Virus record (IMG/VR): IMGVR_UViG_2808606883_000001
Coordinates: 3,917 to 67,916 of that record
Length of the DNA stretch: 64,000 bases
From: a virus
Lineage: Duplodnaviria > Caudoviricetes
Direction: 5' to 3' (one strand)
The notes below the pieces were generated by a model. It saw only the letters and a program-made list of their open reading frames with translations. It had not been told where the DNA came from and made no database searches. A program made the position numbers and the translations under genes. Below, piece after piece: positions 3,997 to 20,180 of this stretch. Each line of letters starts with the position of its first letter. The stretch's first letter is position 1.

Positions 3997-5361
3997 TCAA
4001 TGGCGGGTGCTCGACTCGCATAAGGCAGCGTGCCGAGGAAAGGTTTTCGTGAGTTCGCGATCGACAGCTTTGCCGAGCGAGCGCAGGAGATTCGCGAGCT
4101 GGGCGCGGTCCTGATGGCTTGCGGTCGCCTGCCGGAGTAGCCCGAAATACGAATTCGCGACTTGCATCAGGTCGCCGGGCGATGTCTCCGCGACACGCCG
4201 CAGCGCTTCATTACGCGTGCGCTTCCGCGTCTCGCGGCGCCACGGCTTGATCATCTGGCCGACGAAATCAATGCCGCGGTCGATCGGCTGAAGGATCGTC
4301 TTGCGCGGATTGATCCGCGCGCCCAGCCGCGCTGGCAGAAAGGCCGTGACGTCGGCGAGAATTTCATTCAGGCGAGCCGGCGACTCGTGCAGAAACACGA
4401 AATCGTCGACGTATCGGATGTAGTGCCGCGCACCAAGCACGTGCTTCGCACGCTGGTCGAGCACGTCAAGATATACGTTCGCGAAGAACTGACTCGACAG
4501 GTTTCCGATCGGAAGGCCGAGATGCGGAGCTTGCTCAAGCAGCCGTTTATGCGGCGGCACGAGATTTATCATCGTCGGATCGCCGTGGTACACGTAGTCG
4601 GCCCGTGGATCGTGCATCAGCACGGTTTCGGTCAGTGATCGCCAGAACGGCTCGGAAATCTTCGCGAGAAGCAGCTCGAGCAGGATTCGCTTGTCGATGC
4701 TGACGAAGAAGTTTGCGAGATCGCACTTCAGGTAGAAAGCGCGTCTGGACCAGTTCTGCGTGATCGAGCGCACTTTCGATTCGAGACGTTCGGCTGCGTA
4801 AAGCGTGCCACGGTCCTTGATGCAGGCACATGAATCGACGATGAAGCTGCGCTCGAAGCGCGGGCCGATCCGGTTGTAAAGCAGGTGATGCACGATGCGA
4901 TCGCGAAATGCAGCCGCCCAGACCTCGCGCGGCTTCGGTCGCGCGATGACGAAGCACGTTGAGCGGCCGGGCGTATAGCTGCCGTCGGCTAGCTCGTCGT
5001 AAAGGCGGCGCAGGTTGCGTTCGAGCCGCATCTCGAACGCCAACGCCGCATTGCTGTTTCGCTTCGTTCGCCGGCAGTCGAGATACGCTTCGACCAACTC
5101 GGCGAACGAAAATGGCCCTCGATCTGCGGACGGCGCGGGCGCGCAACTCGTTGTTCTGGTGGTTGTTGTTCTGGTTGCCGTTGTTGAAGTTCTGGTACCA
5201 CGCCCAGCCGGAAGTATCGTGCTATCTACGTCGCCCGGCCGATTGCTCAGCTGGGAAACTGCGCTGGACCTTTCCGCGCGCCGGCGGTCGGTTTCCTCAT
5301 TGCGCATGGCGGTGGCCTTGTGAGCCAGCGGCACGACCAGATTGATAGATCGCTCAGCCAT
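3997..5361 (-). CDS. DGR reverse transcriptase (start uncertain: 5379, 5361 or 5307)
   Basis: YLKCDLANFFVSI, GLPIGNLSSQFFANVYL (DGR-type GxxxSQ), RYVDDFV catalytic motif, GIDFVG. Confidence 0.95.
   Translation of the reverse strand: MAERSINLVVPLAHKATAMRNEETDRRRAERSSAVSQLSNRPGDVDSTILPAGRGTRTSTTATRTTTTRTTSCAPAPSADRGPFSFAELVEAYLDCRRTKRNSNAALAFEMRLERNLRRLYDELADGSYTPGRSTCFVIARPKPREVWAAAFRDRIVHHLLYNRIGPRFERSFIVDSCACIKDRGTLYAAERLESKVRSITQNWSRRAFYLKCDLANFFVSIDKRILLELLLAKISEPFWRSLTETVLMHDPRADYVYHGDPTMINLVPPHKRLLEQAPHLGLPIGNLSSQFFANVYLDVLDQRAKHVLGARHYIRYVDDFVFLHESPARLNEILADVTAFLPARLGARINPRKTILQPIDRGIDFVGQMIKPWRRETRKRTRNEALRRVAETSPGDLMQVANSYFGLLRQATASHQDRAQLANLLRSLGKAVDRELTKTFPRHAALCESSTRH
5123..5211 (-). 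repeat. DGR template repeat (TR), 89 nt
   Basis: Minus strand cc ggc tgg gcg tgg tac cag aac ttc aac aac ggc aac cag aac aac aac cac cag aac aac gag ttg cgc gcc cgc gcc gtc cgc aga: 9 AAC codons and a 14-nt G/C-only element near the 3' end. Confidence 0.97.
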
Positions 5362-5731
5362 GGAAGCCTTGACCTCCATGGAGCGGGCGATTGGTTGCGG
5401 ACTTCCTCCATGCAGTGGCCTGCTTGCCGATGCTCGTCGTCAACTCGATGGCGCGAGCATATGCGCCGCTGTCGACCTTGCGCTTGTTGAGGCCGAGCCG
5501 AAGTAGGAGATTGATCACCTGAAGGCGCTCGATGAGTTCCGTCAAATGCGGCGACTTGTCTCCGGCGACATTGGCGCGGTACACGAGCACGATGATCTCG
5601 ATGCACTCGAAGTTGATTTTCTCGCCGACCGAGCGTTTGAAGTTCCGCTGCATGTTTGTGACCACATCGGTCACGACATCCAGCAGATCTTCTGCGGCTC
5701 GATATATCGGCAGTTGGGTGTGCAGGGCCAC
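5354..5731 (-). CDS. avd: DGR accessory variability determinant (Avd-like four-helix bundle)
   Basis: 125 aa, helical, MALHTQLPIYRAA..., immediately upstream of TR and RT. Confidence 0.88.
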   Translation of the reverse strand: MALHTQLPIYRAAEDLLDVVTDVVTNMQRNFKRSVGEKINFECIEIIVLVYRANVAGDKSPHLTELIERLQVINLLLRLGLNKRKVDSGAYARAIELTTSIGKQATAWRKSATNRPLHGGQGFHG

Positions 5732-5745: not shown

Positions 5746-6231
5746 TCAAATTACCGAAGGGATAAATCTGCGGACGGCGCGGGCGCGCAACTCGCTGTCC
5801 TGGTGGATGTCGTCCTGGCCGCCGTAGTAGAAGTACTGGCACCACGCCCAGCCGGAGTTTTCCGAGTGCTGTTCGGCCGACCAGTAGGCCCGTTCCTGAA
5901 ACTCGCCCTTCAGGTTCGCGAAGAGAAGCGACTGCTCGCGGCGCGTCGGAAGCTCGCCACCGCGTTCGGCGGCCCATGCCTTCGCGTCGCTCCAGTTGAT
6001 GTCGTCCGCATCGCCGGGCAGCAGGATCAGGTAGTGGCTCAGAGATCCGTCGTCGTTCAGGATCGGGCCAGCGAATCGCTCGCCGGCGGCGAGCGGGATC
6101 GTTGCTGCGTCGATGCGATATTCCGTGGCGTGCGCCTGCGTCCTGAACGCCTCGATCATTGCGTCGATGCGCTCTTGATCCGCCTTGATGCGTGCCTGTT
6201 CGGCGTCGATCTGTTCAAGCGTGATCGTCAT
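5746..6231 (-). CDS. DGR target protein 1 (DUF1566/C-type-lectin-like with N-terminal coiled coil)
   Basis: LPTRREQ..YWS..GWAW...ELRARAVRR motifs; C-terminal VR1. Confidence 0.92.
   Translation of the reverse strand: MTITLEQIDAEQARIKADQERIDAMIEAFRTQAHATEYRIDAATIPLAAGERFAGPILNDDGSLSHYLILLPGDADDINWSDAKAWAAERGGELPTRREQSLLFANLKGEFQERAYWSAEQHSENSGWAWCQYFYYGGQDDIHQDSELRARAVRRFIPSVI
5767..5855 (-). repeat. Variable repeat VR1
   Basis: Colinear with TR; 11 mismatches, all at TR adenines. Confidence 0.97.
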
Positions 6232-6261: not shown

Positions 6262-6786
6262 TTAAATCGACAATCTGCGGACGGCGCGGGCGCGCAACTC
6301 GCCGTACTGGTGGTAGTAGCCCTGGTGGCCGTCGCCGAAGTCCTGGTACCACGCCCAGCCGGCGTATTCGGGGTCGTCGTCAGGCGTGTTCGACCAGTAC
6401 GCGGCCGGCTCGAACTGATCGCGGCACTTCTCGTACGCGATCACGAGCTCAGCACGCGTCGGCAGGTCGCCGCCGATCGACTTCGCCCAGTCCATCTGCT
6501 CTTGCCACGACGCGCGGTCGTGATCGCCGGGCAGCAGGATGGTGTGCGTGACGTCGCCATTCGCGTCGACGAAGCCGCCGAGGTAGACCTCGCCTTCGGC
6601 GAGCGCCACCGAAGTGATTCGCGCATACCGATTCAACGCTTCGGCGACCGTGGGGAGCCCAAGATCGAATTTGAAACTGCCGTCTTTCTTGACGTGAACA
6701 ATCTCTGGGTAGCCCTTCTCGTACGGGTTTAGTTCGACAGCGAACTTTTCGCCTTCAGCGAGCGGGAGAAGCTGGATCTGTTGCAT
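6262..6786 (-). CDS. DGR target protein 2 (DUF1566-like)
   Basis: ILLPGD..WAKSIGGDLPTR..YWS..GWAW..ELRARAVRR; C-terminal VR2. Confidence 0.92.
   Translation of the reverse strand: MQQIQLLPLAEGEKFAVELNPYEKGYPEIVHVKKDGSFKFDLGLPTVAEALNRYARITSVALAEGEVYLGGFVDANGDVTHTILLPGDHDRASWQEQMDWAKSIGGDLPTRAELVIAYEKCRDQFEPAAYWSNTPDDDPEYAGWAWYQDFGDGHQGYYHQYGELRARAVRRLSI
6274..6362 (-). repeat. Variable repeat VR2
   Basis: Colinear with TR; 12 mismatches, all at TR adenines. Confidence 0.97.
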
Positions 6787-6891
6787 GATTTCTCCTTGTT
6801 GATTTGAAAAGAGCGAAAAGGCGCATCACCGCCAGCACTTACCGAGATCATCGCCGTTAGGCTTCATCGTGGCTGGGGTGGGCGCGTGAGG

Positions 6892-7665
6892 TTAGGCGGC
6901 TTGCTTGCGAAGCGCGTGCTCGTAGTGATCTACAAAGACGGCAAACTCCCACAGATCTTTCTCCATCGCTTCGATAAACGAATCGTCGCGTTTGACTTCG
7001 ACCATGGTGAATTGCTTGCCGACAGATGCGAGCGCGGGACAGTAGAGGCCTACGTGCCACCAATTCCGCCCACATAGCCACATTCCTCCCATAGCCTGCT
7101 CTTGCACTTCGGTAACGTCATGCTCAAGCACGATCGCGCGGAGTTTGTCGGGCGCAAGGAAACACTTGTATTCGCTGCCGCCATCGGGATCAATCAACCC
7201 GTCCGCACTGCAGCCGAAGCGGCCGTCCTCGGTTCGAACGAATCCTGCGCGTTTGACGAATAGTCCGGTGAGCGCTTCGTGCTCCATCCTCGCTTCGGGC
7301 TCGAGATCTCGTCCGCGGCGCATTTGCCATGTTTCGAAGCCTTCATCCAACGGCGCACCGCTGATGCGCTCGACGGCCAGTCGGAAAGCGTAGTCCTTCG
7401 CAACGTCAGACCAATCACCCACCTTCTCGCCCTTGAGTGCGCGCTTGACGCCCTCCGAACTGGGCATCGTCTTGTAGCCGGCGAACTCTGCTGCTTGCTT
7501 CTCCGTCATGCCACTGATAACCGCATCAACATATTTCTGTTGGCGCTCGTCCAGGCAGTTGACCCTTTCTCGCACCGTCGAAAACATGCTGGCCGTTATG
7601 CAGCCGGCTCTAGCTCGAAACCACTCTTCGCCGCCCTGCGGGCACTCGATAATCTGAACGCTCAT
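6892..7665 (-). CDS. YqaJ-like/lambda-exonuclease-family recombination nuclease
   Basis: QGGEEWFRARAGCITAS, RGRDLEPEAR, GCSADGLI, EYKC motifs. Confidence 0.88.
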   Translation of the reverse strand: MSVQIIECPQGGEEWFRARAGCITASMFSTVRERVNCLDERQQKYVDAVISGMTEKQAAEFAGYKTMPSSEGVKRALKGEKVGDWSDVAKDYAFRLAVERISGAPLDEGFETWQMRRGRDLEPEARMEHEALTGLFVKRAGFVRTEDGRFGCSADGLIDPDGGSEYKCFLAPDKLRAIVLEHDVTEVQEQAMGGMWLCGRNWWHVGLYCPALASVGKQFTMVEVKRDDSFIEAMEKDLWEFAVFVDHYEHALRKQAA

Positions 7666-8573: not shown

Positions 8574-9805
8574 GCAGCAATCTCCATCCAAACATGCCGC
8601 CCAAGCCAGTGCTTGGCGACTTCGATTGATACGTCGTAGTGGTCGGCGAGAACTTGTAGGAGTTCTGCGGGCTCAGGTCCGGTCGTTTCGAACTCGACCA
8701 GTTCGCGTCGAATCCGCTCAGCCTCAGCAGCCGCTTGTTCTGCCGCAATGCGCTGTTGTTCGGCAAAGATGCGATCCGCTTCCGTTTGGGCGATTGCAGC
8801 CTGTTCGGCGGCGATTCGTTCGGCTTCGGCGCGGGCCGCTTGCTCTGCGGCTTCCGCAGCCTCGCGAGCCTTACGCTCCTGCTCTTCTTGGGCGGCGGTA
8901 ATGACAGCCTGCTGGCGCGCTAACTCTGCACGCTGCTCGGCCAGTAGCGCCTCTTCTGCCTCACGCTGTCGGCGCAATTCCGCTTCCGCTGCTTCGCGTT
9001 GGCGACGCAATTCAGCCTCGTGTGCTTCGCGTTCGGCTCGCAAACGGGTCTCTTCGGCCTCTCGTGCCGCGCGTTGTTCGGCTTCGATACGCTCGCGCTC
9101 GGCGCGGTCTTTGGCTTCCTGTTCAGCGCGCGCTGCAGCCGCTTGGCGGTCGCGTTCTTCCTGTTCGACCCGGAGCCGCGCAAGTTCTTCACGTTCTGCC
9201 GCGAGCCGAGCTTGTTCGGCTTCGTGTGCAACCTGTGCGGATAGCATATCATTCAGCTTCGACACAGTCATGAGGTGAACTGCCTTGGCTTCGTCTGCAA
9301 ACTCGCCGAACGATTCTTCGGCGATCTCAACCGCCTCCAGCCCCTCAATCGCCGCCGCAATGGTTGCCGACTGCTTGCCGACCAGCATGGCCGGAATCGC
9401 TTGGATCTCCGCGATGCGCTTTCGGATGCCGTCGACTCGCGCTTTCTCTGCCGCAGCTTTGGCGGCTTTCTCGCGCTCGACCTCTGCATCCCAAGCGTCC
9501 CGGAGATCTTGCAGGCGCGTTTCCTCCGGTTCGGCCAGGGCAACAAGGCGCTTCTCTTCGGCAATCACCGCTTTGGAGAACGCCGTCGCATCCTCGCGTG
9601 CAGCCTTGGCGGCCTTCTCAATGGCGACCCTAGTATTCTTCAGCGTCATCATCGCGCCATGGCATTGCTCGCGACCGTCCTTGTTCTTGACTTCCGTGAT
9701 CGTCGCCGACTTGGCGACCAGATCGCGAAGTTCCTGTTCGTACTTCGGCGCGCCCAGCGCAACAGCGGCGCGCTCGGGCAACGTCAGTTGCTTTTCTTCG
9801 CTCAC
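8570..9805 (-). CDS. Long coiled-coil phage protein
   Basis: A/E/R/Q-rich heptads over more than 200 aa, typical position upstream of recombination genes. Confidence 0.75.
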   Translation of the reverse strand: MSEEKQLTLPERAAVALGAPKYEQELRDLVAKSATITEVKNKDGREQCHGAMMTLKNTRVAIEKAAKAAREDATAFSKAVIAEEKRLVALAEPEETRLQDLRDAWDAEVEREKAAKAAAEKARVDGIRKRIAEIQAIPAMLVGKQSATIAAAIEGLEAVEIAEESFGEFADEAKAVHLMTVSKLNDMLSAQVAHEAEQARLAAEREELARLRVEQEERDRQAAAARAEQEAKDRAERERIEAEQRAAREAEETRLRAEREAHEAELRRQREAAEAELRRQREAEEALLAEQRAELARQQAVITAAQEEQERKAREAAEAAEQAARAEAERIAAEQAAIAQTEADRIFAEQQRIAAEQAAAEAERIRRELVEFETTGPEPAELLQVLADHYDVSIEVAKHWLGRHVWMEIAA

Positions 9806-9824
9806 GTTCTTCTCCTTCCCTTAA

Positions 9825-10184
9825 TCACATGTGATCGCTGCAATGACTAACCCCGCTATCCCCCGCCCCGCAATCCTTCCCGCACTGCGAGCATGACGTC
9901 GATGCGAAGCGCGGTTCGACGCTCATAACCCCCGCCTTCACCAGCGCCGTTTCCATCACAATCCGAACGCTCGACTGGATCGCTGGGATGCTTTCGAGCG
10001 CTATTTGAAGAGCGAGGGCCATGTCGGGAGCGCTTTCTATCAACGCCTCATTTGCATCCGCCTGCTCTATCCCGGCTCCAGACCAGACCTCGCAGATGAC
10101 CTGAAGTTGACCGTCAACGCGTACTCCGATCTGGCGGTGACCAATGCGCTCCCACGAACCGCTTGTAAATTTCAGCTCTCTCAC
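9825..10184 (-). CDS. Hypothetical protein with C-terminal CxxC motif
   Basis: GGAGG then GTG at 10184, overlapping the upstream stop. Confidence 0.6.
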   Translation of the reverse strand: MRELKFTSGSWERIGHRQIGVRVDGQLQVICEVWSGAGIEQADANEALIESAPDMALALQIALESIPAIQSSVRIVMETALVKAGVMSVEPRFASTSCSQCGKDCGAGDSGVSHCSDHM

Positions 10185-10372
10185 GCCACCTCCTTCGGCA
10201 TCAACTCCGGGCGGTAATGGCCGGAATAATCTGGAGACAGCAGCCACCGACTCCCCAGCGCGCGAATTGCTTGCAGGCGCTTGTTTTCGTTGATGGCGGC
10301 GAGGCGTTCGTCGGGGGCTAATGCGGTTTGGAAATCTTTCAGGTCTTGATTGCGTTGCGGCGTGCGGAACAT
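10181..10372 (-). CDS. Small hypothetical protein
   Basis: GGAGGA RBS before MFRTPQRN. Confidence 0.55.
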   Translation of the reverse strand: MFRTPQRNQDLKDFQTALAPDERLAAINENKRLQAIRALGSRWLLSPDYSGHYRPELMPKEVA

Positions 10373-10373
10373 G

Positions 10374-10478
10374 TCATCCTCCCAACAATTGTTTGATAAC
10401 CAGCGTCGCAAACGCAGCAACCAATCCCGCCGCCGACGCAACGAAGATGCTGGTGCGGGTAAGTTCGTCGTGGATCAT
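10374..10478 (-). CDS. Small membrane peptide (34 aa)
   Basis: MIHDELTRTSIFVASAAGLVAAFATLVIKQLLGG, with RBS. Confidence 0.45.
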   Translation of the reverse strand: MIHDELTRTSIFVASAAGLVAAFATLVIKQLLGG

Positions 10479-10486
10479 GATGGCTC

Positions 10487-10810
10487 CTATCGCCACACGC
10501 TGACTGTTGCGTTCGGATTTGCTGCGCACGCCTTGATGTATTCAACTAGCCATGGGATGAAGCCGTCGTAGCTTCCCCATCCGTTTTCGGGGTTGAATCG
10601 TTGGTAGTGGACTGGGCGCCGCAGCATATCCATCAGTCCATCGGTCAATGGAACCACGAGATCGCGAGCATGTTTGATGTCGATTTCCTCGGGTCGCCAC
10701 AGGTGTTTGTAAATCCCTGCGGCATTGGCCATCTTGTTCAGGTTGTGCGTGATGTTGGCCGAATAGACTTCGTTACCATCCGCATCATTAAGATAAACAT
10801 CAAGGCTCAT
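10487..10810 (-). CDS. Phage hypothetical protein
   Basis: NITHNLNKMA..AGIY..NPENGWGSY pattern common in phages. Confidence 0.75.
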   Translation of the reverse strand: MSLDVYLNDADGNEVYSANITHNLNKMANAAGIYKHLWRPEEIDIKHARDLVVPLTDGLMDMLRRPVHYQRFNPENGWGSYDGFIPWLVEYIKACAANPNATVSVWR

Positions 10811-11090
10811 CGCATCATCTCCACATACCCGATATCAGCCTCACGCCGAAGCTCGTCGTACTCCTCCCAGCTAGCTGCGCGCTCGGCCTCGGTCAGCGGC
10901 TTCTCCGGCTCGTCTCCCGATCCAGCAAGCAGCCAGTCATCGTGGAGCGAATCTTTGTCGACAAGTCTCATAATTTGTACTCCGAATTAGTCAGAGCTAC
11001 TTTTCACCGTCCCCACTGCGATCCGGTGCGCCGTGTCGCGAGCATGGCGCTGGCCGTCGAGAGTGGTTCGAATGGGTTTCGCCCTGATGG

Positions 11091-11219
11091 ATAGGAGCCG
11101 GGAGTTGAACCCGGAACTGCCGGCAATGTCTGGTTTTACGGTTTAGAGTTCTGGCGCCTCGCTTACCAACGATTTGCGGAACCATAGCCGCCTGCGTCTA
11201 CCAATTTCGCCACTCCTAT
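11091..11219 (-). ncRNA. tRNA-like element with greatly expanded anticodon/variable region
   Basis: Acceptor ATAGGAG/CTCCTAT, Leu-type D-arm TGGCGAAATTGGTAGACGC, T-arm CCGGG-TTCAACT-CCCGG; 129 nt; no CCA end. Confidence 0.7.
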
Positions 11220-11280
11220 CCATCAAGGCTTCGGGCATCCCACCCGAACAGGCACTCTTCAGCCGTGCTGGTTTCGATAT

Positions 11281-11529
11281 TCAATCAAATCGAATCGTCG
11301 CGCCCTTCATCCATCCAGAGCAGACGACACCCGTAACGAACTGGCCAGTCGGCCCGCGCGCTTCAAAGCCCGTCGAAAAGATGTCGTGCTTATCGCAGCC
11401 GAAGAATGAATATCCGGTGATGCTCACGTCTTTGAAGCCAGCACCCGCGAGTGCTTTACGTGCACCGGGTTCATCGGTGCATCCGGCTAAGGCGACTATC
11501 GCAAGGACCATCAATGCAAATCGTTTCAT
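11281..11529 (-). CDS. Small lipoprotein
   Basis: Signal peptide with lipobox LAGC. Confidence 0.8.
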   Translation of the reverse strand: MKRFALMVLAIVALAGCTDEPGARKALAGAGFKDVSITGYSFFGCDKHDIFSTGFEARGPTGQFVTGVVCSGWMKGATIRFD

Positions 11530-11678
11530 GCCGCCACCTCCTTGTAAGTCTCCATCGCATACTCCGGATAGCCAGAGATGGCGTAGCTGATCGCCTGTGC
11601 GATGCGGTCCATCAGCTTTCGGTCTTCGGCGTTGCGGGCGCGCTCATAGGCCCGGCGCAGCTTCCAAATTTCGATCAT
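11526..11678 (-). CDS. Small hypothetical protein
   Basis: MIEIWKLRRAYERAR..., coupled to the lipoprotein start. Confidence 0.55.
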   Translation of the reverse strand: MIEIWKLRRAYERARNAEDRKLMDRIAQAISYAISGYPEYAMETYKEVAA

Positions 11679-11894
11679 GATCTTCTCTATGCGCCCGCAC
11701 AGTTTTCGCGTCAATCACGCCTATTGGCGATTGATTCTTTGCGAGCAAAAAGTTTTCAGCACCACGGGATAGCCGACCACGGAATCTGTCGCACCGCTAT
11801 GCCATTGACGTATTCGGTGAAATGATCGTGCCAGTGGATCAGTAACGTGTGAGAGATGCGTGGGCGCGGATAGGTGAAATCTGCGTAGAGCACA

Positions 11895-12101
11895 TCAGGC
11901 CTCGTCTGCGTCGATCGCCTCGAGCATGTCAACATCGCTCTCGGTCATGCAGTGCGTGTCATCAGCGTCAATCAGCTCGACGCCGTCTCGTTTCAGAGAG
12001 ACGCCCTCGCGTGCAGCTTCGAGCGACGAGAATTCGCCTAGCCAGCGCTCACCTGCATACAAAGTGCCGCCTATATACGTGAAATCCTGATTCCAGTTCA
12101 T
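11895..12101 (-). CDS. Small acidic hypothetical protein
   Basis: GAGGA RBS before MNWNQDF. Confidence 0.6.
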   Translation of the reverse strand: MNWNQDFTYIGGTLYAGERWLGEFSSLEAAREGVSLKRDGVELIDADDTHCMTESDVDMLEAIDADEA

Positions 12102-12179
12102 TTTGTCATCCTCGCCGCGAGTGACCGCGATAGCGTTAGGGTTAGGCGGCTTCTTTCTCTTCTGATTCCGTCGATTCAA

Positions 12180-13180
12180 CCCAATGGCCGGTCATAAGAT
12201 TGGTTGGCTTGGTCTTGGCGATGACGCGGCCGGAAATCATCCAGCTCGAGATGCGCACTCGTAGCGCCGCGAATATGCCGAAGTCCTCACCGGCTTTGAT
12301 GCCCGAACCGGCGCACAACGAAAACTTAAATTTGGAGCCGCTAACGGCGGCAAGTCGAGCGATGGATAAGGGTCGCTAGGTCTCCACTTGGTAGACATTT
12401 AAGGGGACCGTCTTGAAGTGGGAAGCCATCCAGTCCCCGTAAGAACACTCATTGAATGCGCTTACGGGGCAGCTGCTTACGGCAGCCAGTCGAACGTACT
12501 TGTTTCTCGCCAGTTGAGCACTCAGTCGTCATCGAGTGGGCTCGGTACTGCTGCAATTCTTCTGGGTGAGTGCTGGCGCTATACAGCGACCTTCGGCTAA
12601 CCTACTGCGATGCGCCAGACACTTCGGCCACGGCGTCTTATACGGCTCAGATTCGCGAATACTCAGTCGCGTAGGGAGTTCAGCGACTCACTCAGAAGAA
12701 CTGCTTGCCCGCATCGGCACCGGCTACACCCTGCTATGCAGGCTCCGGCTACCGATGCGGTGAAACTACTGCTACCCTTCCCGGGTTGTTACTCAGCTCA
12801 TTGATTACCACGCCATCAATGATCCATTTCGGCGCCTTTCGGAAGCATTCCCGTCGATACGGTTCAGCCATTTCTGCTCTTCGTACTACTCTCATGTGGC
12901 AGGAGTCAGACATGTGTGCGCTCGGGCTTTCGCCGTGACACCTTTTATCGCTACGTTGTGGATCGAATGTCGTCAGGGCTGGCGGCTTGGCCGGTCGTGA
13001 CTCCGGCTACCCGTTTTAACTGTTGTAACCCCACCTGCGCTGCGCGGAGCCGAAGAACTTGGTAGTTAATCGGGATGGCTCCCATTCAATGCGCTAGGGT
13101 TGCAGGCCGGCTCCTGCTTGCGTTGCGTGTCTACTCTCCACGCCGCAAGTCGCCAGCACTGACTAACACTCGATTCCACG
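12180..13180 (-). ncRNA. Candidate long structured non-coding RNA in the early-left transcript (strand inferred from context)
   Basis: About 1 kb without a credible ORF; many inverted repeats (12435-12443/12461-12469; 12557-12571/12686-12700; 12709-12717/12752-12760; 12798-12805/12815-12822). Confidence 0.5.
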
Positions 13181-13181
13181 C

Positions 13182-13193
13182 TGTTAAAGAACA
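13182..13193 (-). promoter_or_regulatory. boxA-like antitermination site
   Basis: TGTTCTTTAACA, one mismatch from the boxA consensus TGCTCTTTAACA, oriented with the leftward operon. Confidence 0.55.
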
Positions 13194-13284
13194 TCCTCAG
13201 CTTCGAGGCGCGCCCGTTGGCGCTGGTACTGCGTGCTATTCGCAGTAGAGAATATCGATCTCGATACTCGCCACTGAAAACAAA

Positions 13285-13800
13285 TCAACCTTTTGCAAAT
13301 CTCCCGTGATACTTCTCGGCTCCGCTGCAATAGGCCTCGTGCGCTTCCTCTGGAGTTCTGTAATACCCGAGGAAAATATCCTTTCCATCCACTTTGATCA
13401 TCGCCTTCCAAAGGCGAGAAAATTTGTGGAACGTCACCCCTTTAAATCCGGAAGTATTGTTCTTGTTCTTCCCCCGATTTCTTTGGTTCTCTGCGTTTGT
13501 GCAGATCCTCAAATTCGACTTGCGGTTGTCGCTCCTGTTTCCATTGATATGGTCAACTACACGCTTATCCCCCGGCATCAACCGCATGACTTCACGATGC
13601 ATCAAGATTGTCTTTCTCTGTCCGTCAACCCGCTTCCTGCCCTGCATGTAGCCGCCGCTGTTGCAAAACCATGTGACGTCCATAACCAACGCCAAATCTT
13701 CCGCATCAAGCAATGCCACCTTTCCTTGAGAGGTGATGATGGCAGCTGCCGACTCAGCAGAAGCATCGTCACGGAGCTCAATTTCGGTGCTGGTGCTCAT
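13285..13800 (-). CDS. HNH homing endonuclease with C-terminal AP2 domain
   Basis: MHR..VVDHINGNRSDNRKSNLR (HNH) then NTSGFKGV..WKAMI..LGYY.TPEEAHEAY (AP2). Confidence 0.92.
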   Translation of the reverse strand: MSTSTEIELRDDASAESAAAIITSQGKVALLDAEDLALVMDVTWFCNSGGYMQGRKRVDGQRKTILMHREVMRLMPGDKRVVDHINGNRSDNRKSNLRICTNAENQRNRGKNKNNTSGFKGVTFHKFSRLWKAMIKVDGKDIFLGYYRTPEEAHEAYCSGAEKYHGRFAKG

Positions 13801-13820
13801 CTTGAACAGAAATTACCGAA

Positions 13821-14201
13821 TTACTGAATAATCAGTCTGCGGACGGCGCGGGCGCGCAACTCGTAGCCCTGGAGGAGGTTGCCCTGGTTGCCGTAGCCGA
13901 AGTGCTGGCACCACGCCCAGCCGGCATAGGCTGGGTCGGTGTCCGGCTCGTTCGACCAATATGCATCGCGTTCGAACTGATCGCGATGATTGGCCAGAAG
14001 CACCAGATGCTCGATACGAGTCGGCAGATCGCCACCGATGCTCTTTGCCCAACCCATCTGGACCTGCCAGGTCGCGTCGTCGTTGTCACCCGGAAGCAGA
14101 ATGACGTGATGCAGCTCGCCGGCCGTGTTGCTGATCCTTCCGATGTAGATCTCGCCTTCGTTGAGTTCAGGCAGTTCGACTTCTTGCTTCATTGCTTGCA
14201 T
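13821..14201 (-). CDS. DGR target protein 3 (remote, DUF1566-like)
   Basis: GGAGG RBS before ATG 14201; paralogue of target 2; C-terminal VR3. Confidence 0.92.
   Translation of the reverse strand: MQAMKQEVELPELNEGEIYIGRISNTAGELHHVILLPGDNDDATWQVQMGWAKSIGGDLPTRIEHLVLLANHRDQFERDAYWSNEPDTDPAYAGWAWCQHFGYGNQGNLLQGYELRARAVRRLIIQ
13836..13924 (-). repeat. Variable repeat VR3
   Basis: Colinear with TR; 13 mismatches, all at TR adenines. Confidence 0.97.
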
Positions 14202-14251
14202 TTCTTCTACCTCCAATGTGGTGTGATTGCCCGCAGGGCGGGCGCGGTTGG

Positions 14252-14458
14252 TCAGGCGCGCTTGAGAAGTGTGAAACGTTCGACGGGAACACGCCAACGC
14301 GCGGCGCACGATTGCACGACACCCATTGCGGTTTTCTTGTTTGCAAACGTTCTAGCGCGGTCGATGCTGCCAGATGCGCCAAAATCATCCCCATATCCTT
14401 CCAAGAAATAGCCCGACCCATCGCGAGCCGTATAGAAGATCAAAATTTCGGTTGCCAT
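14252..14458 (-). CDS. Small hypothetical protein
   Basis: AGGAG RBS before MATEILIF. Confidence 0.55.
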   Translation of the reverse strand: MATEILIFYTARDGSGYFLEGYGDDFGASGSIDRARTFANKKTAMGVVQSCAARWRVPVERFTLLKRA

Positions 14459-14487
14459 CGTCGTTCTCCTGTAGCGGGAGGGGTTAG

Positions 14488-14631
14488 TCAGCAACCGATG
14501 CCGATGATCTGGGCTGCGAGCAATCGAACCACCCTTGCGTGGCGCACATAGGCTGCGCCTTGACCGTTGCGTAACGCCGCATCTCGTGCAGCGCGAGAAT
14601 CGATCAACTGGCTAGAAAGATTGGCATTCAT
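14488..14631 (-). CDS. Small hypothetical protein
   Basis: AAGGAG RBS before MNANLSS. Confidence 0.55.
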   Translation of the reverse strand: MNANLSSQLIDSRAARDAALRNGQGAAYVRHARVVRLLAAQIIGIGC

Positions 14632-14657
14632 CGCTGCTCTCCTTCGGGTTGTGTTGG

Positions 14658-14807
14658 TCAGCAACCGACAAACATCGCCGGAACCTCTCCAATCCCACCG
14701 TTGCCCGGCATCTTCACGATCTCGCATGCGCAACTCCAATCCTGCTGCCATGACCAGAGACCGAAGGCGGTCATCCAGCGTCCGAAGAAGTCGTAGAGGT
14801 TGAACAT
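14658..14807 (-). CDS. Small hypothetical protein (49 aa)
   Basis: MFNLYDFFGRWMTAFGLWSWQQDWSCACEIVK..., AGGAG RBS; not in ORF track. Confidence 0.45.
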   Translation of the reverse strand: MFNLYDFFGRWMTAFGLWSWQQDWSCACEIVKMPGNGGIGEVPAMFVGC

Positions 14808-14820
14808 GGCTGACTCCTAC

Positions 14821-15015
14821 TTAAACCAACTCAAATCGTTGATGTTCGGGCAACGTTATTTCGATCGTCGTGCCGTGAAACGCTGCAACCTGACTGCGAA
14901 CGCCAAGCACTTCGCCAAACAACCCCTGATACGGACGAATCGACTTGACCTGGACTTCGCGGCCAAAGGCGCGGAGTACATCGCCAACCTTCACTTCGTG
15001 TCCGTACTTAGTCAT
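14821..15015 (-). CDS. First gene of the leftward early operon, hypothetical
   Basis: GGAG RBS before MTKYGHEV, directly downstream of pL. Confidence 0.55.
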   Translation of the reverse strand: MTKYGHEVKVGDVLRAFGREVQVKSIRPYQGLFGEVLGVRSQVAAFHGTTIEITLPEHQRFELV

Positions 15016-15052
15016 GGCTGGCTCCGTGGTGCGTTGTGTGCTGCGATGATTC

Positions 15053-15094
15053 ATTATTGCAAATGTACTTGCGAAGATCAAGTACTTTCCCACT
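15053..15094 (-). promoter_or_regulatory. pL promoter with two operators (OL)
   Basis: -35 TTGATC, 17 bp spacer, -10 AATAAT on minus strand; 14-bp pseudo-palindromes ATTGCAAATGTACT (15056-15069) and AGTACTTTCCCACT (15081-15094). Confidence 0.7.
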
Positions 15095-15136
15095 CAAAAT
15101 CTAAGGAAATTTTCTAGGTGGTATTACGGATGTGAA

Positions 15137-15159
15137 GACGCCCGCGCGAGGCGGGCGTC
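15137..15159. terminator. Hairpin ending the cI operon
   Basis: GACGCCCGC-GCGAG-GCGGGCGTC, perfect 9-bp stem; no clear U tract. Confidence 0.55.
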
Positions 15160-15182
15160 TAGCGAAATGATCCGACTAATTG

Positions 15183-15713
15183 TTAGCCGGGAAGGTGTCC
15201 TTCGTGCGCGCGGACATCTAGCACTGTCTTGTTGTCTGCCGCGAGATCGCATTCATAGGTCACGGGTGTATAGGCCCCGAATCCATTCTGGAATTCGGCT
15301 TTATCCCCAACGTATGTGATCGTGCCTGCCGCCTTGTCGGCCCAGCGGAAGCGACTGAACTTCAGTTCGAATGTGCCGTCCGTCCAGCGCACGCTATGCG
15401 CCGCCAGCCGCTCGACCTGATCCTTGCAATAGACACTGGCCGCCACAATGCCCTTGTCGCCGAGGCACTGGATATCGTCCTTCTTGCAGACGTCAGATTC
15501 CGGCTTTCCCGTCTTCGCGCTCGAGCCAGCAGCAGGTCTGCCGTTGGATGACAGACCGATAGCAAGATATCCCACAAACCCGAGGGCCAGGATCGCAGCA
15601 ATGGCTTGCCGCGCCTTGGTGGCTGGTTTCTTGACTGGTGCGCCACACTTCACGCAGGCGGTCGCCTTGTTGCTTATCTCCGTGCCGCATTCCCGGCACT
15701 TAATCAGAGCCAT
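15183..15713 (-). CDS. Zinc-ribbon plus transmembrane protein co-transcribed with cI
   Basis: CRECGTEISNKATACVKCG, one TM segment, Cys-containing exported domain. Confidence 0.8.
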   Translation of the reverse strand: MALIKCRECGTEISNKATACVKCGAPVKKPATKARQAIAAILALGFVGYLAIGLSSNGRPAAGSSAKTGKPESDVCKKDDIQCLGDKGIVAASVYCKDQVERLAAHSVRWTDGTFELKFSRFRWADKAAGTITYVGDKAEFQNGFGAYTPVTYECDLAADNKTVLDVRAHEGHLPG

Positions 15714-15725
15714 GGCTTTCCCCGA

Positions 15726-16502
15726 TCAGGATGGCGCCCATTCGTCTACATAGTGAGTGAAGGAGGCCATCGCTCCAATCACCTCGAGGCCATCCCTCTC
15801 GCTATGCAGCGTCGCGAAGTCGCTGTTGAGTGGGACGAGTTCGAACGTCATCTTGCCTCGTTCGTCTAGCCCCAGCTCTTTGTACTTGCGCACGACCGAG
15901 CTGCCGCCGCGGATCCGGCCCAGCACGATGTCGCCCGGTTTTGGGGCGCGAGCTGGATCAATCGTTACCACGACATGAAGCCGATCAAACTTAGGCTCCA
16001 TTGCGGCGTCATGGATCAGAACCGCGAACGCGGCCCCCGACATCGGCTGGTGAATCGTTACGGTGCCGATGGGTGCGCCGATAGTGTTGGGATCAGTCTG
16101 GGGAGTCATCTGAGCGGCCATCTCATACGACAAAACAGGGATCGTTCTAGGCAATGGTAGAACGTTTGCGCCAAATTGTACCGACGTTTCCCAGATCTTA
16201 AGACGACGCTGAGTAGGAATTTCCCTAAGGAGGGGCGTCTTCTCGCCTCTTATCGATGCATCGTCCGCACTTGTTTTGTGCTTGGGCGACTCGCGCATTT
16301 CCCCTTTGCCGCTTTGTAGCCAGGTTGCGCTTACCCCTCCCAACGCTCGGGCGAGCGCCAGGATGTGTTTTGATCCTTTGTTTCTTCCCCGTTCGATCTG
16401 CGCAACAGTCGATTGCGAAATGCCTGCAGCCTTGCCCAGCTCATCCTGAGACATTCCCAAGCTCTCGCGCGTCTCGCGGACTCTATCGCCGAAAGTTCTC
16501 AT
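15726..16502 (-). CDS. cI: CI-like repressor (XRE HTH plus degenerate S24 domain)
   Basis: N-terminal HTH (SQDELGKAAGISQSTVAQIERG), C-terminal S24-like fold (LVPLNSDF), divergent from cro. Confidence 0.92.
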   Translation of the reverse strand: MRTFGDRVRETRESLGMSQDELGKAAGISQSTVAQIERGRNKGSKHILALARALGGVSATWLQSGKGEMRESPKHKTSADDASIRGEKTPLLREIPTQRRLKIWETSVQFGANVLPLPRTIPVLSYEMAAQMTPQTDPNTIGAPIGTVTIHQPMSGAAFAVLIHDAAMEPKFDRLHVVVTIDPARAPKPGDIVLGRIRGGSSVVRKYKELGLDERGKMTFELVPLNSDFATLHSERDGLEVIGAMASFTHYVDEWAPS

Positions 16503-16568
16503 ATTGCGAGTGTATTAGGTCGTGCAAGCGCATTGGTACTTGCAGATCAAGTACAAATGCAATACTAT
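16503..16568 (+). promoter_or_regulatory. OR region: three operators and pR
   Basis: ATTGCGAGTGTATT (16503-16516), AGCGCATTGGTACT (16527-16540), AGTACAAATGCAAT (16550-16563) match the OL sites; pR -35 TTGCAG (16540), 17 bp spacer, -10 TACTAT (16563). Confidence 0.72.
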
Positions 16569-16578
16569 GGTTCTTACC

Positions 16579-16839
16579 ATGAATGCAGCCGACATCGTCA
16601 AGGAACTCTCGGAGCGCGGACTGACGCAACTGGAAATCCAGCGTCGCTCCGGCGTCCACCAGTCTACCGTTTCTGCCATCAAGACCGGCAGGCGCGGCAC
16701 CAACATTCGCCACGATATTCACATGAAGCTTCAGACGCTGCTTGATGAAGTTCGGGCCGAGAGCAAGTCGACAACAGATGATGCTCAACCTCCGGCCGGG
16801 GGATCTGTCAGTAAAACGAAGGAATACCCCGAAGGCTAA
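16579..16839 (+). CDS. cro: Cro-like HTH protein
   Basis: LTQLEIQRRSGVHQSTVSAI HTH, divergent from cI. Confidence 0.85.
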   Translation: MNAADIVKELSERGLTQLEIQRRSGVHQSTVSAIKTGRRGTNIRHDIHMKLQTLLDEVRAESKSTTDDAQPPAGGSVSKTKEYPEG

Positions 16840-17077
16840 AAATTTGGCCGCAATGATACACGATGCGGCCTCCAAGTGGTCTCCGTACACGCCACCCCGA
16901 CGTGTAACGGTTTGGGCGACGAAGCTGTCGCTCCTTTTTATCTGATGTTGGCCTGCGATTAGCGGGCTGAGTTGGTAGTAGTGCATAGGGAGAAAGCGGC
17001 CGTTGAGTCGCTTTTATGTTGCGTCCCTTCCAACGGTTAATGCAAGGGCACACAACAGCAAAGATAAGGTGAAATCG

Positions 17078-17494
17078 ATGAAAAATTTTGATGCCTTGGC
17101 TCAATTGGTGCTTCCGGTCTTGATGACAATCCCTCCGCCTCGCCCTTTGGAGCGGACGCTGATCGACGAATGCAAGACGTTCGGCGATGCGGTTTGCCTG
17201 TGTCTGGAAAGGCGGATTCGGCGCCTGAGCGAAGGTGAGATTGCTGGGTATCTTGGCTTCCGTCCGCCGCACTTGGCTAAAGTCAAGCAAGGCAAGGGAT
17301 ATCTGACGAGCGATCAAGAAGCGATTCTCGAGCGACTTTGCTCTAACACGGCCATCTCGCAGTACGCGCGAAAGCGTCAAGCGGAACTTGAGCGAATGAT
17401 CCCGAAGCCCGACATTTCGGACGAGATGAAGGCGATGGTCGAAGCGCTGGTCGCACAAAAACTAGCTGAAGCGAAACAGGAAAAGGCTGCATGA
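17078..17494 (+). CDS. CII-like HTH regulator
   Basis: Position after cro; LSEGEIAGYLGFRPPHLAKVK HTH-like segment. Confidence 0.55.
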   Translation: MKNFDALAQLVLPVLMTIPPPRPLERTLIDECKTFGDAVCLCLERRIRRLSEGEIAGYLGFRPPHLAKVKQGKGYLTSDQEAILERLCSNTAISQYARKRQAELERMIPKPDISDEMKAMVEALVAQKLAEAKQEKAA

Positions 17495-17676
17495 CAGAGA
17501 ACCGAATTTTCAACGGCCCGGCGCTCGTCGTGATCGATGTTGAGACCAAGACGTACGCACGGTACTTCGGCAACAAAAGAACGCTGGCGGCTCGCGGAGA
17601 AGAATTCCTGACGCCAGTTGAGGTTGAAATGTTCCGCGTCGATCCGCGCAAGTTCATGGGTATCGAGGCGGCTTAA
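17491..17676 (+). CDS. Hypothetical protein
   Basis: ATGA-coupled ORF. Confidence 0.6.
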   Translation: MTENRIFNGPALVVIDVETKTYARYFGNKRTLAARGEEFLTPVEVEMFRVDPRKFMGIEAA

Positions 17677-17689
17677 CACCGGGAGCAGC

Positions 17690-18340
17690 ATGAGAATCCT
17701 TCCAGACTTTGAAGAATGGCCCGGAGTCATCGCTGGGTTCGCGGATACCGCCGACAGCTTCGAAATTCTCGGCATCGGGTGCGTTCGTCCGATGATCGGC
17801 GGCGTTTTTGGATTCCAACGATTCTGGATGTCGTCGGCACCGTACGTCAAGGGTGGACTCGATGAGGTCCGCTATTTTGTGATTGAAAGGTCTTGCGGTG
17901 TGCCATTTGGAATCGGCGATACGAAAGCCGCCGCCATTTCCCAGGCTCGATGGTTTGTGACCAGTTACGGCGATTATTTCGATTCCCTGGTCGCAATGAT
18001 CATTGCCGAGCGCCAACGCCGGCAAGCCGAGCGTGTGCAGCAGGCCAAAGATGCCACCCGAGCCCTGATCGATGAAGTGAGATCGGCGCGGGTCGAAGAA
18101 AAGCGCATCCCGCGCCGTCGTCGTCAGGTCTTCGAGAAATCGAACGGTTGCTGCCACTACTGCAGCATGCCGCTCGACCTGTACGGCAAATGGCATGTCG
18201 AGCACATGATGCCGAAGGCGCTGGGTGGCTCCGACGAGCCCGGCAACCTCGTCGCCTCTTGCGTCCCATGCAACATGAAGAAGAAGGACAAGACTGCCGA
18301 GGAATTCATCGCAGAGCGAGCCAAGCAGGAGGCAGCATGA
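17690..18340 (+). CDS. HNH endonuclease-domain protein
   Basis: CCHYC..WHVEHMMPKALGGSDEPGNLVASCVPCNMKK. Confidence 0.88.
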   Translation: MRILPDFEEWPGVIAGFADTADSFEILGIGCVRPMIGGVFGFQRFWMSSAPYVKGGLDEVRYFVIERSCGVPFGIGDTKAAAISQARWFVTSYGDYFDSLVAMIIAERQRRQAERVQQAKDATRALIDEVRSARVEEKRIPRRRRQVFEKSNGCCHYCSMPLDLYGKWHVEHMMPKALGGSDEPGNLVASCVPCNMKKKDKTAEEFIAERAKQEAA

Positions 18341-18496
18341 GCATCTTCACGATTTGGTTCTTCATGGCGTCGTTCATGGCGCGGGCGTGGCTCGCATGAA
18401 GACCTTCATTCTGGTCTCGGCTGCGCTCCTGCTGTCGACCCTGGCCGTTGTCACGGTCTGCGACTTTGTCGAATGGTATTCGGCGCTGGGGGTGAG

Positions 18497-18676
18497 ATGA
18501 ACGCGCCCGAGCCAGTTCATTCCGATCCGCTGCTAGCGGAAGTGTTCGAGCTGCTGCATCGGATGACGAAATCGCAAGATCAGGCTCTCGGGTGGTATGC
18601 GTGGGACGCGATCAGGAAGCTCGAGCAGTACGAGAAGCAGCAGAAGGCGCTGCTGGGACTGACTAAGGGGAAGTGA
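18497..18676 (+). CDS. Hypothetical protein
   Basis: Operon-consistent short ORF. Confidence 0.5.
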   Translation: MNAPEPVHSDPLLAEVFELLHRMTKSQDQALGWYAWDAIRKLEQYEKQQKALLGLTKGK

Positions 18677-18677
18677 A

Positions 18678-18860
18678 ATGAAGATGTGTCAGCTTGAAGT
18701 GAAGGTTGACGAGGCCGGATATCTCCTCCTCATTCAAGAGGATGGCGGCGAGGACGAAATCATCGCCCTACATCCTGATCAAGTGCCGGTTGTTTGCGAA
18801 TGGATGATGAAGATGATCGGCGCGCGCGTTGAGACGAAGGAAGTCAAGAGCCAAGGCTAA
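18678..18860 (+). CDS. Hypothetical protein
   Basis: Operon-consistent short ORF. Confidence 0.55.
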   Translation: MKMCQLEVKVDEAGYLLLIQEDGGEDEIIALHPDQVPVVCEWMMKMIGARVETKEVKSQG

Positions 18861-18872
18861 CTGGATGAAAGC

Positions 18873-20180
18873 GTGCAAGAAGAAACGCCGCAACTTGAAG
18901 ACGGGTACACTCGGATAGCCAATGAATTGCTCGACGCAATCATTGCCTTCCCGTTTTCGGCTAGGCAAATGCGCGTTCTGATGGGTTTGATCCGGAAGTT
19001 GTACGGGTACAACAAGAAGCGGGATGACATTTCTGCTTCGCAGATTGGAGAGCTTTGCGCGATGCACCGCTCGCATGTTTCCGAAACGCTGGGCCACCTT
19101 GCGGCCATGAAGGTCATCTTCAAGGAGCCAGGCCGCTTCGGCAACATGATCGAGATCAACAAGAATTACCGGCAGTGGCTTGAGCTCGATTCCAATGGTG
19201 AACCCAAGGAACGAGTGCAGCGAAACAAAATCGAGTGCACCTTCCACTACACATATCGAACGACGAAAGTCGCGACGGGTGAGTTCTATCTGGGCGTCAG
19301 ATCTTGCGCATGCCATCCGAACCAGGACCGCTATATCGGCTCTGGCAATTGGATTGCGACCGTAAAGGCGGCTGAACTGAGGAAGGAGGTCATCGCCACG
19401 TACGGGAGTCGGGAAGAAGCCGAGCAAGCGGAAAAGGATCTGATTCGTGCCAGTTGGGGCAATCCGTTACTCCGGAACACGACGCTCTATCAGCGTACAG
19501 AACCTGTACAGGGTGTACAGAATCTGTACAGGGGTACAGAAGATGTACAGGGTGTACAGAATGAGGGTGGCGCTAGTACAGAATCTGTACAGGTCGATAG
19601 TACAGATTCTGTACACACAAAAGACAACCTTCCAAAAGACATAGAACAAAAGACAAAAATCTTCCCGCGCTCGCTTCGCGAACGCTTCGAGATTTTTTGG
19701 TCGGCTTACCCGCGTAAAACGGAAAAGCAGGACGCCCTGAAGGCGTTCGAAAAGCTTAACCCTGATGACGACTTGCTCGCTGAGATCTTGGCGGCCGTTG
19801 CCCTCGCCAAGAGATCGGAGCAATGGAAGGTCAAGAAGTATATCAAGCACGGCGCGACATGGCTGAATAAAGCCTGCTGGCAGGATGAGTTGACCGTGTC
19901 CTACACGGAAGAGCAGCTCGAGGTTATGGCGCTTTACAACGAGTGCCTTGGTGATTCGCTGGGTCTGGCGGATGTGGATGTCTTTGTTGGCGAGCGCGCA
20001 GATGCAATTGACGATTTCCGGACTTTCGTTGCCAAAGACCCGGCGTTTTGGAAGCGGTATTTCCCGTGGGTAGCGGAGAACGTTGATGTACCTCCGAGAT
20101 GTGGATTTGACTGGCTTATCGGTCGTGACGGTTTTACGAAAGTGAAAGGCGGACAATTTAACAAGGACGCAGCAGCATGA
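18873..20180 (+). CDS. Lambda O-like replication initiator with inserted GIY-YIG-like domain
   Basis: LEDGYTRIANELLDAI..LIRKLYGYNKK N-terminus; internal iterons; C-terminal FEIFWSAYPRK..HGATWLN; followed by DnaB. Confidence 0.88.
   Translation: MQEETPQLEDGYTRIANELLDAIIAFPFSARQMRVLMGLIRKLYGYNKKRDDISASQIGELCAMHRSHVSETLGHLAAMKVIFKEPGRFGNMIEINKNYRQWLELDSNGEPKERVQRNKIECTFHYTYRTTKVATGEFYLGVRSCACHPNQDRYIGSGNWIATVKAAELRKEVIATYGSREEAEQAEKDLIRASWGNPLLRNTTLYQRTEPVQGVQNLYRGTEDVQGVQNEGGASTESVQVDSTDSVHTKDNLPKDIEQKTKIFPRSLRERFEIFWSAYPRKTEKQDALKAFEKLNPDDDLLAEILAAVALAKRSEQWKVKKYIKHGATWLNKACWQDELTVSYTEEQLEVMALYNECLGDSLGLADVDVFVGERADAIDDFRTFVAKDPAFWKRYFPWVAENVDVPPRCGFDWLIGRDGFTKVKGGQFNKDAAA
19495..19614. repeat. 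Replication origin iterons
   Basis: Five palindromic units GTACAG-N3-(C/A)TGTAC at 19495, 19515, 19534, 19576, 19600, plus a half site at 19554. Confidence 0.85.

Follow-up and report, generated by a model that had tools for sequence, protein, structure and literature searches.

The window analysed here, a stretch of 64,000 nucleotides, was taken from an IMG/VR provirus record of 67.9 kb, of which it covers positions 3917-67916; the record is rated complete by CheckV. Its source is a dormant Burkholderia-type phage, in which a single template of a diversity-generating retroelement (DGR), a targeted-mutation system, probably rewrites three small lectin-fold genes. Two of these genes, targets 1 and 2, belong to the DGR cassette, which also contains the reverse transcriptase (RT), the template repeat (TR), and the accessory protein Avd; the third gene, target 3, is located near the immunity region of the phage. 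Table 1 compiles the features of the locus, including the variable regions (VRs) of the three targets.

Table 1. Features of the DGR cassette, the target-3 locus, and the adjacent immunity region (positions refer to the window)
Feature	Position	Strand	Evidence or remark
DGR cassette	3997-6786	-	RT, TR, RT-15 RNA motif, Avd, targets 1 and 2
DGR reverse transcriptase ORF, open in frame through TR	3997..5379	-	Pfam RVT_1; IGNLSSQ and YVDD motifs
Template repeat (TR)	5123..5211	-	89 bp, 26 adenines, nine AAC codons in VR frame
RT-15 RNA motif (Rfam RF03018), abutting TR on its 5' side	5210..5392	-	171 bits vs gathering score 82
Avd accessory protein	5354..5731	-	Pfam bAvd, 46.9 bits
Target 1	5746..6231	-	VR1 at 5767-5855, 11 mismatches, adenine-only
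Target 2, resident paralogue nearest to target 3	6262..6786	-	VR2 at 6274-6362, 12 mismatches, adenine-only
YqaJ-type exonuclease	6892-7665	-	between target 2 and target 3
HNH_3 + AP2 homing-type endonuclease gene	13285..13800	-	Pfam and PHROG matches
VR-specific AT-rich tail, TT every ~8 nt	13800..13835	-	covers last codons, stop, and 3' UTR; missing from TR
Target 3, 126-aa signal-less lectin-fold (DUF1566/Lcl_C-like) protein, DGR target	13821..14201	-	translation, Pfam, AF2/Foldseek
VR3, 89 bp colinear with TR	13836..13924	-	13 mismatches, all at TR adenines
GC-rich IMH-like 26-mer GAGTTGCGCGCCCGCGCCGTCCGCAG	13837..13862	-	identical in TR and all three VRs
Leader of target-3 module: GC hairpin GCCCGC-CCT-GCGGGC and GGAGG ribosome-binding site	14202..14258	-	conserved; L013/L039 homology begins here
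pL-like operator/promoter: GTACTTG-N7-CAAGTAC, then ATTTGCAATAAT	15050..15085	-	17-mer shared with pR
Zinc-ribbon ORF	15183-15713	-	after repressor; then strong GC hairpin
CI-type repressor (HTH_3 + S24 peptidase)	15726..16502	-	domain matches
pR-side copy of operator/promoter module, N5 spacer	16536..16564	+	between cI and cro-like ORF

The RT ORF is intact and belongs to the DGR clade, and it resides in the same element as target 3; Avd and the RT-15 RNA, which flanks the TR, are both present. A repeat search of the sequence found no direct repeats at a minimum length of 40; the TR/VR repeats were detected only by sensitive blastn.

The ATG of target 3 lies at 14201 and is preceded, at a distance of 8 nt, by GGAGG. 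The alignment of VR3 with the TR is gapless: every one of the 13 mismatches is located at a TR adenine, and the 63 positions at which the TR has another base are all identical. Given 26 adenines among 89 positions, the chance that 13 out of 13 mismatches hit an A is about (26/89)^13, that is, roughly 1e-7; when VR1, VR2, and VR3 are pooled, the ratio is 36/36. In the VR frame, 11 codons are variable (in the TR, these are TAC, nine AAC, and CAC), which correspond to residues 98-113 of target 3; at nine of these 11 codons, target 3 differs from the residue encoded by the TR. The distance from the TR to target 3 is 8.6 kb. An earlier reading based on the sequence alone had proposed a remote DGR target at 13821-14201 with 13 changes in its VR; this assignment and its coordinates were confirmed.

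A comparison with other VRs that are distant from their template places these numbers into context. We regarded a VR as far if it is located more than 1.5 kb from its own TR, and found 18 such cases in about a dozen related proviruses. Among their mismatches to the respective TR, 225 of 227 are at adenines; far VRs carry on average 12.6 mismatches, cassette-adjacent ones 12.4. The distances to the TR range from 2.2 to 49.5 kb; most are 6-10 kb, most are within 2.2-10.2 kb, and two VRs are ~49 kb away. The latter two belong to one provirus record of 96 kb (2912464834_000002, loci L041/L038), for which no cassette-adjacent VR was seen; this record may represent a prophage that was cut or permuted, or else two elements, and the distance of ~49 kb may be an artefact of cutting. 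The TRs of the phages differ at some non-adenine positions (e.g. AAT versus AAC, and several changes within contig 2767802448), and in these cases the far VR matches its own TR. Far VRs of this family are, consequently, as diversified as near ones and stay in register with their own template. The observation of the sequence-only reading that VR3 carries the most changes is literally true for the series 11, 12, and 13, but it is trivial in view of the family means; as far and near VRs bear the same load across the family, we rejected any meaning of the difference between 13 and 11 or 12 mismatches.

These counts also bear on the idea that VR3 is not a DGR product at all, i.e. that its similarity to the TR is due to ordinary paralogy or gene conversion and that the adenine bias arose by chance. 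The only argument in favour of it is that the three genes are indeed paralogues. However, gene conversion would not selectively spare non-adenine sites, and the adenine-only pattern, which holds for VR3 and the pooled VRs of the window as well as for almost all mismatches of the far VRs, refutes a non-DGR origin; we consider its probability negligible.

In contrast to the full agreement of VR3 with the TR at non-adenine positions, the DNA of target 3 outside the VR is only 72% identical to target 2 and 65% identical to target 1; at the protein level, the identity is 63% with target 2 and 50% with target 1 (113 aa). The proposed paralogy with target 2 holds, and the shared motifs quoted for the two proteins are present. 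The match of target 3 to the Pfam family Lcl_C (PF07603, formerly DUF1566) covers residues 73-121 with 17.4 bits (E 0.005), which is below the gathering threshold of 34.9 bits; target 2 is likewise sub-threshold with 28.5 bits. Some homologues of target 3 carry a precomputed PF07603 match and are named DUF1566 by NCBI. In a protein-database search, more than 1000 homologues with E <= 1e-30 were found, which originate mostly from Burkholderia and Paraburkholderia and are named DUF1566. The AlphaFold2 model of target 3, built on 29 family members, reached a pLDDT of 88 and a pTM of 0.82. With this model, Foldseek identified the C-terminal domain of Legionella Lcl as the best PDB match (TM 0.67), followed by many C-type lectin domains, none of these matches being at E <= 0.001. 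According to the model, VR3 is positioned at the C-terminal end of a predicted C-type-lectin-fold domain and contains AAC-type variable codons. A signal peptide was not found in the target-3 sequence.

Exactly four copies of the 26-mer GAGTTGCGCGCCCGCGCCGTCCGCAG are present in the entire provirus record of 67.9 kb, one in the TR and one in each of the three VRs. An exact-pattern scan detected the same 26-mer at 36 loci from ~27 IMG/VR proviruses, and it is also present in phage Magia. Among species-representative genomes, it was found in Burkholderia aenigmatica, Paraburkholderia caffeinitolerans, and a Xanthobacteraceae MAG. The genome of P. caffeinitolerans (G002) possesses, besides a first DGR on contig C3, a second one on contig C6 (103558-105095), where a one-base variant of the 26-mer (GAGTTTCGC...) occurs in four clustered copies. 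The suggestion to scan a host chromosome for further VRs was followed with the whole genome of B. aenigmatica; all four copies of the 26-mer found there are in the prophage, and no further VR was detected outside of it.

Downstream of the 26-mer, the VRs of this family share an AT-rich tail. In all 73 VRs examined, TT is found at tail positions 1-2, 9-10, 16-17, and 24-26, the only exception being position 1 of VR3; the corresponding tail of 26 TR copies is unrelated to that of the VRs. Judged by this arrangement, i.e. a shared GC-rich stretch followed by a sequence that distinguishes VRs, VR3 possesses a putative 3' element of the IMH type. A hairpin or cruciform downstream of the IMH is a feature of the Bordetella phage BPP-1 and is not universal among DGRs. 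For the three VRs of the window, no significant hairpin of this type was found; the DNA folds of their 3' regions had z-scores from -1.0 to +1.4 in comparison to shuffled sequences. A GC-rich 26-mer combined with a periodic AT-rich tail, which takes the place of the hairpin, is our candidate for the target-recognition signal in this DGR lineage. The tail of VR3 reads CTGATTATTCAGTAATTCGGTAATTT and is the sole one among the 73 with a C instead of T at position 1; the other 72 VRs and all 26 TR copies have a T.

This deviation allows for the reading that VR3 is a frozen relic, which was diversified earlier and into which the resident DGR no longer homes, e.g. due to the T-to-C change in the tail or to the loss of another cis requirement. 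Besides the unique C, the missing hairpin after VR3 fits such a history. On the other hand, the changed base is a synonymous Leu exchange (TTG to CTG), the remaining tail motif is kept, the ORF and the 26-mer are intact, and VR3 has accumulated not a single non-adenine mismatch in 89 bp.

Orthologues from related phages provide a more direct view on this question. Proteins of three relative loci (L013, L039, and L031), which end with RRLIIQ or RRSIIQ, were aligned as direct target-3 orthologues with the window. Outside the VR, 25 of 277 (L013), 16 of 277 (L039), and 19 of 149 positions (L031) differ; at TR-adenine positions, the numbers are 16, 14, and 14 of 26, respectively. In none of the three cases does any of the 63 non-adenine positions of the VR differ. 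Expressed as percentages, a divergence of 6-13% outside the VR is opposed to 54-62% at TR-adenine positions. The closest database orthologues, which belong to B. ubonensis, B. stagnalis, and B. pseudomallei, show a similar distribution: their differences are found mainly at the TR-AAC codons, and the scaffold hardly varies. The sequence-only reading had named a VR3 that is invariant across strains as the sign of a frozen copy; the orthologues vary, and they do so exactly at the TR-adenine codons. Since this variation is found at TR-adenine sites and not elsewhere in the VR, the pattern is that of repeated mutagenic homing rather than that of a relic.

That decay does occur in this class is indicated by the orthologue of L031 (provirus 2808606917; VR at contig position 12778, TR at 10567), which has two non-adenine mismatches to its own TR, whereas VR3 of the window has none; our approach can consequently detect decay. 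The TR of L031 contains a T where all other TRs have an A; its two cassette-adjacent VRs follow this TR, the third target does not. The target-3 copy of L031 may be frozen or may have been imported recently into that phage. Although the L031 case and the unusual tail base fit a frozen relic, the latter is an improbable description of VR3 itself. Based on the comparison of strains, target 3 can with good confidence be regarded as an active-type target, and homing into VR3 would by extension still be ongoing in this prophage.

In order to trace the origin of target 3, a tree was computed from the non-VR parts of 67 family proteins. It consists of three old paralogue classes, which are represented by target 1, target 2, and the remote targets including target 3. 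The remote class is nearest to the target-2 class, and target 3 of the window groups with its orthologues from L013 and L039 at a support of 94/90; therefore, the duplication is older than these phages. Of the proposal that target 3 arose by duplication from target 2, the paralogy stands; the event itself did not happen in this phage, as target 3 represents an old class common to many Burkholderia prophages. A recent duplication of target 2 is ruled out by the tree.

The gene neighbourhood of the remote class is recurrent. In L013, L039, and L031, target 2 and the orthologue upstream of it are separated by ~1.08 kb, which include a 103-aa ORF; in L013 and L039, the orthologue forms the third tandem target. 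A CI-type repressor follows in L013 ~2 kb further upstream on the same strand. Six other relative loci, among them that of Magia, have a match to the repressor HTH domain; it precedes the remote target by 1-2 kb and has the orientation of the latter. In at least eight relatives, a homologue of the C-terminus of the window ORF 9825-10247 is situated directly after the remote target. The repressor matches upstream of the remote targets indicate that the conserved anchor of this class is the immunity region; the position of the target is conserved relative to the latter and not relative to the cassette.

In the window, ~7.2 kb separate target 3 from target 2, and target 3 is remote because other modules lie between it and the cassette. 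This interval contains the HNH_3-AP2 gene, a boxA-like site, an ORF-poor block of ~1 kb, a tRNA-like match, small ORFs, and the YqaJ-type exonuclease module. The tRNA-like match (11090-11219, minus strand; Rfam RF00005) is weak, with 34 bits stretched over 130 nt, and ARAGORN predicted no tRNA anywhere in window positions 1-20000. The block without long ORFs extends from 12180 to 13193 and matches no Rfam family at E <= 0.1; in L015, the DNA that immediately precedes the remote target (positions 1-322) resembles two segments of the block, 12337-12463 and about 12803-12918, with 77-86% identity. An rrn-type boxA-like site, TGTTCTTTAACA, which is unique in the window with zero occurrences expected, is located within 13182-13227 on the minus strand. 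This stretch of 46 bp has counterparts with 91-93% identity in L032 and in B. aenigmatica (L046); in the latter, the counterpart precedes the remote target by ~340 bp. As the stretch is found downstream of both target 3 and the HNH-AP2 gene in the window, the order of leader and target has been rearranged there.

The HNH_3-AP2 ORF begins 20 nt past the stop of target 3. A tblastn search for a homologue gave no match in any fetched relative locus; the gene next to target 3 is, judged by these comparisons, an insertion specific to this window. The proposed comparison of related prophages for the presence of both genes had a divided outcome: orthologues of target 3 are present, e.g. in L013, L039, and L031, while the HNH-AP2 gene is absent from every fetched relative locus. 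A different HNH endonuclease gene (17618-18340, plus strand) lies on the other side of the immunity region, which is flanked in this way by one such gene per early operon. Moreover, the O-like replication protein (18873-20180) contains a homing-endonuclease-like insert at residues 115-204, according to PHROGs.

With respect to L013 and L039, the borders of the target-3 module are sharp (14258 and ~30 nt past the stop), and the flanks differ. A 42-bp leader with the GC hairpin (14217-14258, minus strand) is 100% identical in L035 (provirus 2765235967) at 5008-5049, where it is located ~1.1 kb from that phage's own remote target; the leader may be a reusable intergenic element. The module borders raise the issue of import: a module of ~460 bp, consisting of leader hairpin, gene, and tail, could have been recombined into this phage after having been diversified by the identical TR of another phage, in which case the pattern of VR3 would not report the activity of the resident element. 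The sharp borders with differing flanks, the different module context in relatives, and the adjoining homing endonuclease gene are in line with this scenario; moreover, the TR of the window is identical to that of several related proviruses, so that diversification elsewhere followed by import is possible. Such an import is compatible with target competence, as all features that permit diversification are present beside an intact DGR. We consider it rather unlikely that VR3 owes its pattern to another phage; our preferred reading remains that of a target served by the resident DGR.

With regard to expression, an operator/promoter module, which was first spotted by eye and then confirmed by a pattern search, occurs on both sides of the repressor gene. 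The 17-mer CAAGTACAWWTGCAATA is found only at the pL-like site and at pR, with zero occurrences expected by chance. A consensus scan detected a promoter-like TTGATC-17-AATAAT with a TG before the second hexamer at 15081-15053. A search for 12- and 14-mers shared between the cI-cro gap and the left arm identified no operator, and a GC3 coding-potential filter was uninformative here due to the mixed composition of the region. The duplication of the module supports the prediction of a pL-like promoter ~0.85 kb upstream of target 3. The placement near the head of the early operon is reasonable in view of this distance, but ~four small ORFs precede target 3, making it about the fifth and not the first. 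By this assignment, target 3 would be expressed early; its timing says nothing about targeting, because retrohoming acts on DNA.

One may speculate that the target-3 class is deliberately kept at the boundary of immunity region and pL, apart from the targets linked to the cassette. Its product would then be a hypervariable cytoplasmic lectin-fold binder, which is expressed right at the start of infection or induction or even from the lysogen. Instead of binding a receptor, it could counteract host defences, take part in host takeover, or mediate exclusion, in each case as a diversifiable factor. We deem this function a long shot; if true, an early non-receptor binder would represent a role that has so far not been demonstrated for DGR targets.

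Target 3 is very probably a genuine target of the resident DGR, being sequence-competent although not adjacent to the cassette. This reading is in agreement with the adenine-only TR/VR pattern, the intact machinery, the lectin fold, the confinement of orthologue variation to TR-adenine sites, and the recurring layout. The RT-Avd complex would copy the RNA of the TR (5123-5211) into cDNA, misincorporating at template adenines. The cDNA would then replace any DNA segment that contains CCGGCTGGGCGTGGT as homologous sequence on the 5' side, the GC-rich 26-mer on the 3' side, and the AT-rich tail of the VR type. As cDNA and proteins would act in trans, the distance of 8.6 kb would be irrelevant, and in all three lectin-fold genes the same 11 codons of the C-terminal binding face could be rewritten. 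Being an old member of a three-paralogue family, target 3 belongs to a class whose position shortly after the immunity repressor is conserved; in this phage, a block of modules including the homing-type HNH-AP2 gene separates it from the cassette.

The DGR of the Bordetella phage BPP-1 comprises mtd, TR, brt, and avd and has a single target, which is a tail-fibre protein; a GC hairpin or cruciform follows its IMH. The DGR of the window resembles it with respect to adenine mutagenesis from an AAC-rich TR, the core of Avd and RT, a C-terminal VR in a C-type-lectin fold, and the GC-rich 3' end of the VR. It differs by having three small signal-less targets in the early region and a periodic AT-rich tail instead of a hairpin. 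As in the window, the DGR of Treponema denticola combines one TR with several dispersed targets, and the Legionella DGR has with LdtA a target whose VR is of the DUF1566/CLec2 type (PMC5758913). These two are cellular elements with surface-lipoprotein targets, whereas the window is a prophage, whose targets lack a signal peptide.

Non-adjacent targets are well documented. Wu et al. (2018, NAR 46:11) assigned 73 of them to 45 of 372 DGRs, applying the same adenine-only criterion that was used here for target 3 (PMC5758913). For phage-associated DGRs, the non-adjacent targets belonged to the same prophage as the DGR, at distances of up to about 50 kb; avd-TR-brt has been reported to work in trans (PMC5758913). 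The restriction of the 26-mer to the prophage in the B. aenigmatica genome is consistent with this placement of non-adjacent targets (PMC5758913). Short targets that consist only of DUF1566 constitute category 'd' of the survey (PMC5758913). The Burkholderia DGR family and its immunity-adjacent placement are not described by Wu et al. 2018, and the word Burkholderia is absent from the main text (PMC5758913).

The closest described system is phage Magia of B. cenocepacia (MT701587), whose DGR comprises genes 44-47 and 57. It shares with the window an identical 26-mer, a near-identical TR, and the order RT-Avd-target-target; RT (gp44), Avd (gp45), gp46, and gp47 are followed by a regulator, an ATPase, RecT, nuclease genes, and then gp57. 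The latter resembles target 3: it is a small lectin-fold gene with an adenine-only VR, located ~6 kb upstream of gp47 and ~1 kb from the immunity repressor, and it is annotated as 'lectin fold domain protein; possible DGR target, contains IMH-like region'. The genome announcement named genes 47 and 57 as potential mutagenesis targets with IMH regions (PMC7883833; Microbiol Resour Announc 2021). Absent from the targets listed there is gp46 (PMC7883833), which is annotated as hypothetical and whose VR, too, deviates from the TR at adenines only (locus L049, 5317-5781). There are also differences: gp57, which is ~70% identical to target 3, belongs to the common remote class ending with RRLPI and heads its leftward operon. 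Target 3 belongs to a subclass ending with '...RRLIIQ', comes after ~four small ORFs, and is followed by the HNH-AP2 gene; the intervening DNA is not homologous to Magia. Two further records, OP650936.1 ('Hujiaoplasma phage zrk29-1') and OK094664.1 ('Shewanella phage vB_Sb_QDWS'), each contain three homologues that are 72-73% identical to target 3 and, hence, closer than those of Burkholderia phage Magia. Both records have a length of exactly 47,902 bp and odd host labels; they look like one Burkholderia-type phage.

The layout of target 3 is real, but a related phage with this layout is already on record; target 3 is a further example and not a new kind. The novelty that remains lies in the function of small cytoplasmic lectin-fold proteins of the early region and in their conserved placement by the immunity region. 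Target 3 leaves the known picture of DGRs unchanged and adds to it a clean example of one TR that serves a target several kb away inside a prophage.
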